Below are positions 24,319-27,415 of a stretch of 27,913 nucleotides of DNA, piece after piece. A program made the translations under genes and the position numbers. This DNA comes from Chloroflexota bacterium (GTDB taxonomy: Bacteria > Chloroflexota > Dormibacteria > Aeolococcales > Aeolococcaceae). The stretch covers positions 1 through 27,913 of the forward strand of contig VBHE01000028.1 of the NCBI GenBank assembly GCA_005889515.1, given 5' to 3'. Each line of letters starts with the position of its first letter. Positions within the stretch are counted from its first letter, which is position 1. Below the pieces are notes generated by a model. The model did not search any database, was not told where the DNA came from, and worked only from the letters and a program-made list of their open reading frames with translations.

Positions 24319-25007
24319 GCACCGGCGCGATGCTCGAGCTCCAGGACCTCGACGACCTCCTCGCCGCGCGGCGCCAGGCGGCGCGGGCGGTCGAAGCCCG
24401 GATCGCGGGCTCGCCGGAGCTCGACGCGGCGCGGGCGCGGGCGGCCGAGCTCGGCGCGGAGGAGCGCACGCTCGAGGAGCGGGTCGCCGCCGCCGATCGC
24501 CACGCCGCCGCGCTCCGCGCCCGGGTGAAGGTCATCGACCGTCAGCTCTATGGCGGCAGCGTGCGCAACCCCCAGGACCTGCTCATCCTCCAGCGCGAGC
24601 TCGCCGAGGTGCGTGAGCGCCTCTCCGAGGCCGACGACGCCGAGCTGGGGCTGATGGAGGAGGGGGAGGCCGTCGCCGCCGCCGCCCGGGACGCGGCCGC
24701 GGCCGTCGCCGTCATCGAGGGCGAGCGCAGCGCCGCCGCCGGCGACGAGCGGGAGCGCCTCGAGGCGTTGCGCGCGGAGATCTCCCGGCTGGAGAGGGAC
24801 CGCGCCGCGGTCGCCGGGGCGCTCCCACCCGCCGAGCTCGCCCTCTACACCCGCCTCGCCACCCGGCTCCATCCGGCGGTGGCGCGGCTCCAGGGCGACT
24901 CCTGCGGCGGCTGCCACCTCCCCCTCGCGGTCCGTGAGGTGCGCGCCAGCCGGGCGGGTGGGGAGCTGGTGCAGTGCTCGAACTGCGATCGCGTGGTGGT
25001 GCGGTGA
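24315..25007 (+). CDS. DUF164-type coiled-coil protein with a C4 zinc ribbon, 230 aa
   Basis: LELQDLD, LYGGSVRNPQDL..LQREL, a long coiled coil and CGGC...CSNCDRVV. GTGA overlap with the upstream gene (alternative ATG 24330). Confidence 0.88.
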   Translation: MSTGAMLELQDLDDLLAARRQAARAVEARIAGSPELDAARARAAELGAEERTLEERVAAADRHAAALRARVKVIDRQLYGGSVRNPQDLLILQRELAEVRERLSEADDAELGLMEEGEAVAAAARDAAAAVAVIEGERSAAAGDERERLEALRAEISRLERDRAAVAGALPPAELALYTRLATRLHPAVARLQGDSCGGCHLPLAVREVRASRAGGELVQCSNCDRVVVR

Positions 25008-25468
25008 GGGTGGAGGAGGGGCAGCTCCGCCTCGATGTCGCCGTCCCGGTCCGGACGGTGGTCGCCTACACCGACGGCGCCTGCTCGGGCAACCCCGGCG
25101 CGGGCGCCTGGGCCTACCGGCTGGAGTGGCCGGACGGCGCCGTCGAGGAGCGGGCCGCGGCCGAGCCGATGACGACGAACAACCGCGAGGAGCTCAAGGC
25201 GGTCCGCGAGGCGCTCCGCGCGGTGCGACGGCGGATCGGCGACGACCCCGGGTGGCGGGTGCTCGTGCGCACCGACAGCATGGGGGTGATCAACTGGCTG
25301 CAGGGGCGGTGGAAGCGGAACAAGAACCTCGACCTGTTCCCCACCATCGACCCGCTCGTCGACGGCCGGGTCCGCTTCGAGCACGTCCGCGGCCACAGCG
25401 GCGACCCCGGCAACGACCGCGTCGACCGCCTTGCGGTCGCCGCCTACGAGGAGCTCCTCGGCCGCTAG
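25004..25468 (+). CDS. rnhA: Ribonuclease HI, 154 aa
   Basis: YTDGACSGNPGAG, TTNNREEL, RTDS, W...W and HVRGHSGDPGNDRVDRLA supply the D-E-D-D catalytic set. GTGA overlap with the upstream gene. Confidence 0.92.
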   Translation: MRVEEGQLRLDVAVPVRTVVAYTDGACSGNPGAGAWAYRLEWPDGAVEERAAAEPMTTNNREELKAVREALRAVRRRIGDDPGWRVLVRTDSMGVINWLQGRWKRNKNLDLFPTIDPLVDGRVRFEHVRGHSGDPGNDRVDRLAVAAYEELLGR

Positions 25469-25478
25469 CCGTCCGGGC

Positions 25479-25589
25479 TCAGAAGAGCCGGCGCAGCACC
25501 CTGGCGACACGGGACGCGAGGCCTCCGGCGGTGTGCCGGCGCGCCTCGACGTTCTTCAGCTCCAGACGGAGCCACTCCTGGTCGGTCAT
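25479..25589 (-). CDS. 36-aa microprotein (absent from the ORF track)
   Basis: AAGGAGGGCAGGAG directly before ATG 25589; MTDQEWLRLELKNVEARRHTAGGLASRVARVLRRLF* with TGA at 25481-25479. GC3 is high and it has its own TTGCGT-17-TACGAT promoter. Confidence 0.62.
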   Translation of the reverse strand: MTDQEWLRLELKNVEARRHTAGGLASRVARVLRRLF

Positions 25590-25628
25590 CTCCTGCCCTC
25601 CTTGGGCGCTGAGCCGGTCCCCCAGCTC

Positions 25629-25692
25629 TCGTTGCGTTACGCAACGATCGTACCAGAGAAGGTTGCATCACGCAACGCTCACGAGGTAGGCT
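25629..25692. promoter_or_regulatory. Divergent promoter pair with two GTTGC-N5-GCAAC palindromes (probable HxlR operators)
   Basis: TCGTTGCGT-t-ACGCAACGA (25629-25647, perfect) and GTTGCATCACGCAAC (25662-25676), centres 31 bp apart. Plus strand: TTGCAT-18-TAGGCT-6-ATG 25699. Minus strand: TTGCGT-17-TACGAT. Confidence 0.78.
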
Positions 25693-25698
25693 GACCTC

Positions 25699-26190
25699 AT
25701 GCTCGAGCGCACCTACGACGCCGAGGTCTGCTCGGTCGCCCGCGCCCTCGAGGTCGTCGGGGAGCGCTGGACGCTGCTCATCGTCCGCGACGCCTTCCAC
25801 GGGGTGCGCCGCTTCGAGGACTTCCAGCGCCGGCTGGGGCTGGCCCGCAATGTCCTCACCGACCGGCTCCAGCGGCTCTGTGCGCTCGGCGTCTTCGAGC
25901 GCGTCCGCTACCAGGAGCGACCCGGGCGCCACGAGTACCGCCTGACCGACATGGGGCGCGACCTCTGGCCGGTGATCATCGCGCTGCGTGCCTGGGGCGA
26001 CCGGCACATGGCACCGGCGGGCCCTCCGGTGCGCCTCGAGCACCGCGGCTGCGGCGGGCGGGTCGAGCAGCAGGTGGTCTGCGCCGACTGCGGCGAGCCC
26101 CTGCGGGCGCGCGACTCCGAGATCCTCCCCGGCCCGGGCGCCCCGCCGTCCCCACCGGCGATCCCGGTGGGAGCGGGCGCGGCCGGTTGA
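25699..26190 (+). CDS. HxlR-family winged-helix transcriptional regulator, 163 aa
   Basis: CSVARALEVVGERWTLLIVRDA, RRFEDFQRRLGLARNVLTDRL and EYRLTDMGRDL..VIIALRAWGD, with a C-terminal HRGCG...CADCG. Confidence 0.93.
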   Translation: MLERTYDAEVCSVARALEVVGERWTLLIVRDAFHGVRRFEDFQRRLGLARNVLTDRLQRLCALGVFERVRYQERPGRHEYRLTDMGRDLWPVIIALRAWGDRHMAPAGPPVRLEHRGCGGRVEQQVVCADCGEPLRARDSEILPGPGAPPSPPAIPVGAGAAG

Positions 26191-26191
26191 G

Positions 26192-27415
26192 ATGAGAGGG
26201 GGGGCGGCGGCCGCGACCCGGCGCCCGGCGACGCCCGGACCGGCGCCGGCGCCGGGCCCGGCGCGGCCGGCGCCGCATCCGCTGCTCGTCGCCGCGGGCC
26301 TCGCCGCCGGCCTCCTCCTCCCGGGGATGCGCGCCGACCTCCACTGGTCCTTCGCCCAGGCGGGCGCGATCAACGCCGCGAACGCGTTCGGCTACCTCGC
26401 CGGCGCGATGGTCACCCCCGCGATGAGTGCCCGCATCGGCCGCCGCGCCGCCTTCGTCGGGGGGACGGTCGCGGTCGTGGTCACCCTGCTCGCCACCGCG
26501 CCGGCCTCCGGGTTCGCGGCGCTCATGGCGCTGCGCGTGCTCGCCGGTGTCGCCGGGGCGCTGGTGTTCATCACCGGCATGGACCTCACCGCCTGGCTGG
26601 GCCGGGGCCACTCCAGCACCCGGGCGGCGGTGCTCCTCGGCGTCTACGTCGCCGGGGGCGGCCTGGGGATCGTCCTCTCCGGGCTCGCGGTGCCGCCGAT
26701 CCTCGGGCTCGCCGGCCCCTCCGCCGGATGGCGCCTCGGCTGGCTGGCGCTGGCGCTGCTCTCCGTCGCCGCGCTCGCCGTCGCCGACTGGGCGGCGAGG
26801 CAGGTCGACGCCCCCGCGGTGGCGCGGCGCGGCCAGAGCGCCGGCTGGCCGGCGCGGCGCTTCGTCCCCAGCCTGGCGAGCTACCTGCTCTTCGGCCTCG
26901 GCTACATCTCCTACATCACCTTCGTGGTCGCGCTGCTCGTCCGCGAGGGCATGGGGAGCCTCGTCGTCGGCGCCTTCTGGGTGGTGCTCGGGCTCGCCTC
27001 CATCCTCTGCGTCCCGCTCTGGGGCCGCGCCCTGGGACGGCTCCAGGGTGGAGCCGGGCCGGCCCTGGTGCTCGCGGTGGTGAGCGTCGGCGCCGCCATG
27101 CCGCTGCTCGGCGGCGGAGCGCCGGTGGCCCTGCTCTCCGCGCTCGTTTTCGGCGGCGCCTTCCTCGCGGTGGTCACGGCGGTCACCGCGGTGGCGCGCG
27201 AGGCCCTCCCGGCGGCGCAGTGGGGCCCGGCGATCGCCGCCCTCACCGCGGCGTTCGCCCTCGGCCAGTGCGCCGGCCCGGTGCTCACCGGCCTGCTCTC
27301 CGACCTCGCCGGCGGGGTGCGCTCCGGCCTCGGGCTCTCCGCGGGGCTGATCGGGCTCGCCGCGCTCATCGCCCTCGCCCAGCACGGACCGGACCCCGCC
27401 CGGACGCCGGGGTAG
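26192..27415 (+). CDS. YbfB/YjiJ-family MFS transporter, 407 aa, TM1 apparently shortened
   Basis: LLLPGMRADLHWSFAQAGAINAANAFGYLAGA, YVAGGGLGI, LFGLGYISYITF and FALGQCAGP. It starts 1 nt after the HxlR stop. Confidence 0.88.
   Translation: MRGGAAAATRRPATPGPAPAPGPARPAPHPLLVAAGLAAGLLLPGMRADLHWSFAQAGAINAANAFGYLAGAMVTPAMSARIGRRAAFVGGTVAVVVTLLATAPASGFAALMALRVLAGVAGALVFITGMDLTAWLGRGHSSTRAAVLLGVYVAGGGLGIVLSGLAVPPILGLAGPSAGWRLGWLALALLSVAALAVADWAARQVDAPAVARRGQSAGWPARRFVPSLASYLLFGLGYISYITFVVALLVREGMGSLVVGAFWVVLGLASILCVPLWGRALGRLQGGAGPALVLAVVSVGAAMPLLGGGAPVALLSALVFGGAFLAVVTAVTAVAREALPAAQWGPAIAALTAAFALGQCAGPVLTGLLSDLAGGVRSGLGLSAGLIGLAALIALAQHGPDPARTPG

Follow-up and report, generated by a model that had tools for sequence, protein, structure and literature searches.

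A conserved 36-residue microprotein gene predicted to be controlled by a divergent HxlR-family regulator in Dormibacterota

Background

According to existing descriptions, sensors of the HxlR/HypR type control detoxifying enzymes whose substrates are aldehydes, quinones or oxidants. The locus analyzed here raises the question of what such a sensor controls when the reading frame divergent from its own gene is only 36 codons long and, more basically, whether so short a reading frame is a gene at all. Within the window (that is, the whole 27,913-nucleotide stretch of DNA that was analyzed, which comes from the high-G+C metagenome-assembled genome of an uncultured soil bacterium) a 230-bp spacer separates an RNase H gene (24974-25468, plus strand) from hxlR (25699-26190, plus strand). 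The minus strand of this spacer encodes an open reading frame (ORF) of 36 codons plus TGA (25479-25589), which reads divergently from hxlR and converges on the RNase H gene, with a gap of 10 nt between the end of the ORF and that gene. An earlier note, made from the sequence alone, had drawn attention to this ORF; its ATG start, its length of 36 aa and its divergence from the HxlR gene are all confirmed. Evidence for regarding it as a microprotein gene comes from the ORF itself, its orthologues, pN/pS ratios, codon-position G+C content, synonymous variation and AlphaFold2 modeling.

Coding potential of the small ORF

A six-frame search of 40 related genomes finds orthologues in six of the seven same-genus genomes, with E-values from 5e-15 to 5e-6, and no convincing match to the microprotein outside the genus. 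These same-genus orthologues are 36-43 codons long, keep both the ATG and the GGAGG core of the Shine-Dalgarno (SD) sequence, and differ in length by multiples of three. When a profile was run against 1.84 billion representative proteins, only eight clusters were recovered, every one of them 34-59 residues in length, which implies that the ORF is not what is left of a longer gene. The earlier note had allowed that homologous loci might carry a much longer gene here; none was found, and the idea of a deletion remnant is thus ruled out. (One weak match in another family, at locus L008, with E = 0.118 and within a 222-aa open frame, was rejected as due to chance because neither an HxlR nor an RNase H gene adjoins it.)

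Selection on the ORF was assessed in several ways. Pairwise dN/dS values are mostly 0.1-0.8, so that the expectation of values below 1 holds for most pairs and fails for a few pairs with values above 1, which may arise when synonymous sites number about 30. With three metagenome members of greater distance added to the same-genus orthologues, the annotated frame has a summed pN/pS of 0.63, which is the lowest of the six frames (0.87-1.48 in the other five) and constitutes an overall signal of moderate size, the C-terminal third being variable in length. The G+C content at codon positions 1, 2 and 3 is about 0.8, 0.48 and 0.95, respectively (with third-position values ranging from 0.89 to 1.0), a pattern characteristic of genuine genes in G+C-rich genomes. 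Finally, eight residues are invariant within codons 1-18, and each of the six that is neither Met nor Trp shows synonymous codon variation, which indicates that the constraint is on the protein rather than on the DNA or RNA. Hence the features that mark a small protein-coding gene--a conserved start codon and SD sequence, frame-preserving indels and frame-specific purifying selection--are found together and, judged by such comparisons, the small ORF is a genuine conserved protein-coding gene, the translation of which is predicted.

The family to which it belongs lacks any evident counterpart among those already described. The microprotein has no Pfam, NCBIfam or PADLOC match; a feature search of the ESM Atlas with the peptide gives a best score of 0.80, which is at chance level; and profile matches within the PDB are confined to de novo designed helical repeats and were set aside as reflecting helix-forming composition rather than homology. 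On these searches the microprotein family is an undescribed one, its known members being confined to a single Dormibacterota genus and related metagenome contigs.

Genomic context

The ORF lies divergent from an HxlR orthologue (75-89% identity) in five of the five same-genus loci whose contig extends as far as hxlR; in a sixth same-genus locus the contig ends within the spacer. Thus the conserved synteny for which the earlier note had suggested looking in related genomes is indeed present. It extends, moreover, to the four more distant metagenome cluster representatives that were looked up, each of which has an HxlR gene (155-167 residues) reading away from the ORF. The other flank varies: in one metagenome group the RNase H gene is replaced by a TadE pilus gene set. 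The constant neighbor of the microprotein gene is therefore hxlR and, so far as gene order tells, the gene is strictly linked to this HxlR orthologue at every locus examined. The association is a narrow one. A metagenome scan using an HxlR alignment identified more than 550 relatives, among which this peptide occurs on two contigs only, both with an HxlR that is 100% identical to that of the window; most HxlR homologues at 51-66% identity have a long divergent neighbor.

The variable flank also bears on two alternative explanations for the conservation. A leader-peptide or attenuator role for the microprotein family was rejected because no constant gene lies downstream on the same strand. That the conserved element is instead non-coding (for example, a non-coding RNA, the leader of a divergent promoter, or an antisense transcript into rnhA) might be suggested by the conserved hairpins within the 5' leader, which are described below, and by the way the ORF ends: a scan downstream of it detected no terminator site, and 10 nt separate its end from the RNase H gene that converges on it. 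Against this stand the frame-specific constraint, the synonymous variation at invariant residues, the in-frame indels, and the conservation of both ATG and SD sequence. Nor is there a significant Rfam match (a search over 25350-25800 yields one match, E = 0.56, which is at chance level). And because the downstream gene may encode either RNase H or TadE, no single antisense or downstream target is shared by the loci. A non-coding origin of the conservation is thus very improbable. A perfect inverted repeat, CGAGGAG/CTCCTCG, is located at 25449-25462, within the final codons of the RNase H gene and 17 nt past the stop codon of the microprotein gene; it lacks a T-run and is the sole candidate terminator hairpin for these two convergent genes.

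On its other side, hxlR is followed by a gene encoding a 407-aa MFS_4 (YbfB-type) transporter (26192-27415, plus strand; PF06779, E = 1.3e-56), which starts 1 nt past the hxlR stop codon; this spacing predicts that the two genes form a single operon. An MFS_4 gene follows hxlR in the three metagenome peptide loci that were scanned with Pfam and in those same-genus contigs that reach that far. MFS_4 homologues from another genus (52-53% identity) are associated with a TetR regulator and lack the peptide. The proposed link between the microprotein and MFS_4 is one of co-occurrence only. In one metagenome relative (L022:1160-2403) two ORFs take the place of an intact MFS_4 gene downstream of hxlR, owing either to a frameshift or to an assembly error.

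The divergent regulatory region

The spacer contains two palindromes of the form GTTGC-N5-GCAAC, termed here O1 (GTTGCGTTACGCAAC, 25631-25645) and O2 (GTTGCATCACGCAAC, a perfect instance, 25662-25676). They were described previously as lying 31 bp apart, in agreement with their starts at 25631 and 25662. Such sites are rare: the looser form GTTG-N7-CAAC occurs twice within the window, as compared with 0.01 times expected from shuffled sequences, and there are only four GTTGC-N5-GCAAC sites in the 3.9-Mb assembly, O1 and O2 among them. Among the ten loci that were compared, O2 is a perfect GTTGC-N5-GCAAC in all ten (which include other 50%-identity clusters), O1 degenerates in relatives to GTTG-N7-CAAC, and the distance between the centers of the two remains 31-32 bp. 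Paralogous HxlRs (57-60% identity) from the same and neighboring genera are also accompanied by TTGC-N5-GCAA boxes, which are often paired and which precede ordinary divergent genes, encoding a molybdopterin-oxidoreductase-like protein, an MFS, a GNAT and an SRPBCC protein. Since the same type of box thus precedes the divergent genes of the paralogues, the two palindromes are very likely operators of this HxlR clade. One of the two other GTTGC-N5-GCAAC sites in the assembly (G000:C395:1252-1266; locus L012) occupies an apparently intergenic, less G+C-rich stretch beside a terminator-like hairpin, and HxlRs of this clade may bind there too.

A scan for consensus sigma-70 promoters came up empty, and the promoters were therefore read by eye, using a looser TANNNT definition of the -10 box and conservation as support. 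The predicted microprotein promoter (minus strand) consists of a -35 box, TTGCGT (25675-25670), a 17-nt spacer and a -10 box, TACGAT (25652-25647), which conforms to TANNNT in all ten loci, with variants TACAAT, TAGGAT, TATATT and TAAGAT located between the operators of relatives. These positions put the predicted transcription start near 25640, so that the contention that the first palindrome covers the microprotein start site stands, as regards a predicted start, with O1. The predicted hxlR promoter (plus strand) consists of TTGCAT (25663-25668), 18 nt, and TAGGCT (25687-25692), the latter being TAGACT or TAGGCT in most relatives. The second palindrome was likewise correctly said to contain the -35 boxes of both promoters: TTGCAT on the plus strand and TTGCGT on the minus strand are the two half-sites of O2.

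Because the hxlR -10 box ends just 6 nt before the ATG at 25699 and no SD sequence is present, the hxlR-MFS mRNA is predicted to be leaderless. With its -10 box 6 nt ahead of the start codon, hxlR looks leaderless not only in the window but also in L002, L007 and L023. Loci L003-L006, which form a sub-clade of the genus, carry an insertion of about 40 nt that gives hxlR a leader with its own SD sequence, GAGGAGG, and in L003 and L005 the hxlR start codon is TTG.

The microprotein gene has an SD sequence, AAGGAGG (25597-25603, minus strand), 7 nt before its ATG, whose GGAGG core occupies the same position in ten of the ten loci. Of the strong double SD sequence proposed earlier, this conserved element stands; the second GGAG, which touches the ATG, is not conserved among relatives and only a single SD sequence is thus supported. 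Two hairpins are predicted within the mRNA leader (minus strand), based on the window and on the equivalent regions of L002-L007, L018, L022 and L023. One, obtained by applying RNAalifold to the ten 5' leaders, is a small, weak GCCC/GGGC hairpin of 4 bp (25595-25607), in which the SD sequence falls within the loop and 3' arm. The other, obtained by applying RNAfold to each leader separately, is a putative G+C-rich hairpin of 7 bp with a GGGA loop (25611-25628), just past the predicted transcription start; most of the individual folds share its position while differing in sequence. Such hairpins may affect microprotein mRNA stability or translational control.

The putative HxlR sensor

The hxlR gene encodes a protein of 163 aa, residues 19-105 of which match PF01638 (E = 1.6e-24; 86 bits, as against a gathering cutoff of 20.8), followed by a C-terminal extension. 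The earlier note had pointed to Cys11 as an N-terminal cysteine of the thiol-sensing type. This residue is invariant in nine orthologues and aligns with Cys14 of Bacillus subtilis HypR (YybR), the redox-sensing cysteine of that protein, as well as with a cysteine of PA1607 and of 4GCV. No counterpart was found of the second HypR cysteine, Cys49, which forms the intersubunit disulfide; the aligned position is Leu or Gly. Hence the redox mechanism cannot be the two-cysteine mechanism of HypR. As for the remaining cysteines, Cys61 is not conserved, and Cys118, Cys129 and Cys132 constitute the sole conserved C-terminal cluster.

This cluster, H115-x2-C118...C129-x2-C132, lies within the C-terminal extension (26041-26097; residues 115-132) and could either bind zinc as a knuckle or provide resolving thiols. 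Most paralogues have one (L033, L034, L036, L037, L039 and L052 were examined), and the assembly encodes about seven HxlR paralogues of this type.

The closest solved structures are PA1607 (2F2E; E = 5e-32) and 4GCV (E = 2e-29). Both are long-form HxlR-like proteins, which align with the window HxlR through the extension to about residue 148 and share its N-terminal cysteine; they lack its Cys/His cluster, and their entries do not define their targets. Comparison with HypR (YybR), YodB and QorR is also instructive: these have the PF01638 winged helix, the N-terminal cysteine, palindromes overlapping a divergent promoter pair and, by layout, autoregulation in common with the regulator here. It differs from HypR, however, in having the PA1607/4GCV-like extension with its HxxC...CxxC knuckle and in lacking a Cys49 counterpart; and it differs from all three in that its gene is predicted to be co-transcribed with an MFS_4 transporter gene and in that what it would control divergently is not an oxidoreductase but a 36-residue protein that belongs to no known family.

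Predicted features of the microprotein

AlphaFold2, given an alignment of 15 sequences, models a helix spanning residues 3-35 (pLDDT 80, lowest near the Gly-rich middle). The peptide can be divided into a conserved helix (residues 1-18), a Gly-rich hinge, and a basic amphipathic helix (residues 24-36). No transmembrane stretch was found in the peptide, the mean hydrophobicity being 0.06-0.26 and the net charge +4 to +6.

The C-terminal helix, LASRVARVLRRLF, has a hydrophobic moment of 0.71, which is reached by 0.3% of shuffled sequences, and a net charge of +4; equivalent helices across the family have moments of 0.56-0.71 and charges of +3 to +4. The earlier note likened this helix to the MinD membrane-targeting sequence. 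The likeness (as compared by sequence) lies in the helix being short, positively charged and high in hydrophobic moment, and this cationic, amphipathic character holds across the family. On the other hand, 11 of the 15 members have 5-12 mostly basic residues beyond the amphipathic helix, so that it is not terminal in most of them; Phe36 is present in only two of the 15; and the hydrophobic face consists mostly of Val, Ala and Leu. In view of the basic tail and the rarity of Phe36, the MinD analogy is only partial. Most likely, the C-terminal helix serves as an anchor for the peptide, either on the inner membrane surface or on a partner.

The N-terminal helix is the best conserved part, with M1, T2, D3, W6, R8, L9, N13 and R18 invariant, and yet its moment is only 0.16--that is, it is not amphipathic. 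Such a low moment, together with conserved and hydrophobic residues around most of the helix, suggests a specific macromolecular partner in preference to simple lipid binding; judged from this pattern, the N-terminal helix is probably a specific recognition surface.

Which partner this might be can be considered in the light of the surrounding genes. One candidate is the exporter. On this proposal the microprotein serves as an accessory subunit or modulator of MFS_4, acting from the cytoplasmic face in the manner of AcrZ on AcrB or of WatS on WatABO. The presence of MFS_4 after hxlR wherever this could be checked fits the idea, as does a cationic amphipathic helix that could lie at the membrane surface, and there is documented precedent for efflux pumps being tuned by small proteins under a regulator's control (WatR/WatS; PMC10355033). 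Unlike the known pump-binding small proteins, however, the peptide lacks a transmembrane segment, and the MFS_4 homologues of another genus do without it, so that this role is considered unlikely. The other candidate is the regulator itself: the microprotein might bind HxlR as an anti-repressor or co-repressor, much as SinI acts on SinR, and so prolong or sharpen derepression. Here the peptide's being tied to one HxlR orthologue, and not to MFS_4 homologues elsewhere, is in favor, as is the burial of its conserved, non-amphipathic helix on more than one face; an extra operator lock on the peptide gene alone would also suit a potent regulator of the switch. Yet paralogous HxlRs of the same domain layout, Cys knuckle included, lack such a peptide, and nothing was found that sets this HxlR orthologue apart; a feedback role thus seems a little less likely still. 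(A complex prediction for MFS_4, two copies of HxlR and the peptide gives a score of 0.00, which counts neither for nor against contact.)

A third possibility needs no protein partner: the microprotein may be a basic peptide, induced by stress, that targets nucleic acid or arrests growth through an action on the membrane, and would thereby resemble in role, though not in sequence, the Fur-regulated basic proteins or LexA-controlled small toxins. It is very basic and Arg-rich, has one invariant Trp, appears to be tightly controlled by two operators, and has a cationic amphipathic helix like that of membrane-active peptides. But it is similar to no known family, and it has neither a hydrophobic transmembrane stretch nor an antisense RNA or antitoxin partner, which makes this very improbable.

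A model for the locus

The reading preferred here, to which we assign a probability of roughly 0.6, is that the microprotein is repressed by HxlR, is made together with the exporter upon modification of Cys11, and acts either at the membrane surface or on a partner within the same stress response. An HxlR/HypR-like repressor would thus have the microprotein gene as its dedicated target on the divergent side. The two 15-bp palindromes, which are three helical turns apart, would each be occupied by an HxlR dimer. When bound to O2, which holds both -35 boxes, HxlR would shut off both promoters--that is, both the microprotein gene and, through autoregulation, the leaderless hxlR-MFS_4 operon--and O1, which covers the microprotein transcription start, would serve as a second lock on the microprotein gene only. 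Modification of Cys11 by an oxidant or electrophile would release HxlR, upon which the microprotein and the MFS_4 exporter would be produced together; our best guess is that the microprotein then serves the stress response in which the exporter takes part. The regulatory part of this scheme is well supported by comparison among loci; HxlR binding, repression, the inducing signal, translation, and the location and contacts of the peptide are what we infer.

A bolder version, which is offered tentatively as the less probable one, makes the peptide an active part of the switch: after HxlR is released, the N-terminal helix might bind to HxlR or to MFS_4 and alter its behavior, in which case the microprotein could be viewed as a regulator-encoded 'memory' or 'specificity' peptide.

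Relationship to other small proteins

Transcription-factor-gated small proteins that tune transporters include those of the MarA/Rob/SoxS-AcrZ-AcrB and MntR-MntS systems. In the WatR-WatS-WatABO system a stress regulator co-controls a pump and a small ORF (PMC10355033). The AcrZ, MntS and WatR-WatS-WatABO systems resemble the arrangement predicted here in that they place a pump and an unannotated small ORF, at most 50 codons long, under one stress regulator. They differ from it in that their peptides have either a transmembrane helix or a known partner, whereas the peptide here is predicted to be soluble and basic, and in that the regulator belongs to another family. A search of the literature for HxlRs associated with small proteins found no report of such a module. 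What is new is thus the pairing of an HxlR sensor with a new peptide family; a small protein gated by a transcription factor is of a known kind.

A second, unrelated family of small ORFs, 35-50 aa in length, is divergent from hxlR in 16 of the best 80 of the more than 550 loci (L080, L088, L094, L106, L109, L114, L115, L119 and eight more; e.g., L106:1620-1772 and L088:2244-2390, both on the minus strand), where the HxlR homologues are 53-59% identical to that of the window. Its members have a basic N-terminus, a core like RIAITQEEIAADLHYPA, a basic tail and a strong SD sequence, TGGAGG, and in those loci whose spacer was inspected there are two GTTGC-N5-GCAAC palindromes about 43 bp apart. 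The hxlR gene of these loci heads an aldehyde-dehydrogenase operon, and the small ORF is a first cistron that overlaps or precedes a 4HBT thioesterase gene, an XRE HTH gene, or both; it may therefore be a leader cistron rather than a stand-alone output. Its presence in 16 of the best 80 loci indicates that small ORFs beside this HxlR clade are recurrent.

Conclusions

In a candidate phylum without a cultured model, the only gene behind the divergent promoter of an HxlR-family regulator encodes a 36-residue protein that, by the comparisons described here, is under protein-level selection. The practical reach of this finding is limited by the narrowness of the microprotein family. If the proposed scheme is right, then a small-protein output would be added to those of thiol-stress regulons, in the form of a compact three-part module consisting of a sensor, an exporter and a microprotein. 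The second small-ORF family hints that such outputs have been overlooked more widely because of ORF-length cut-offs. Taken together with the bolder version of the model, that second family would make small-protein outputs a trait that is general to this widespread clade of soil HxlRs and has been overlooked.
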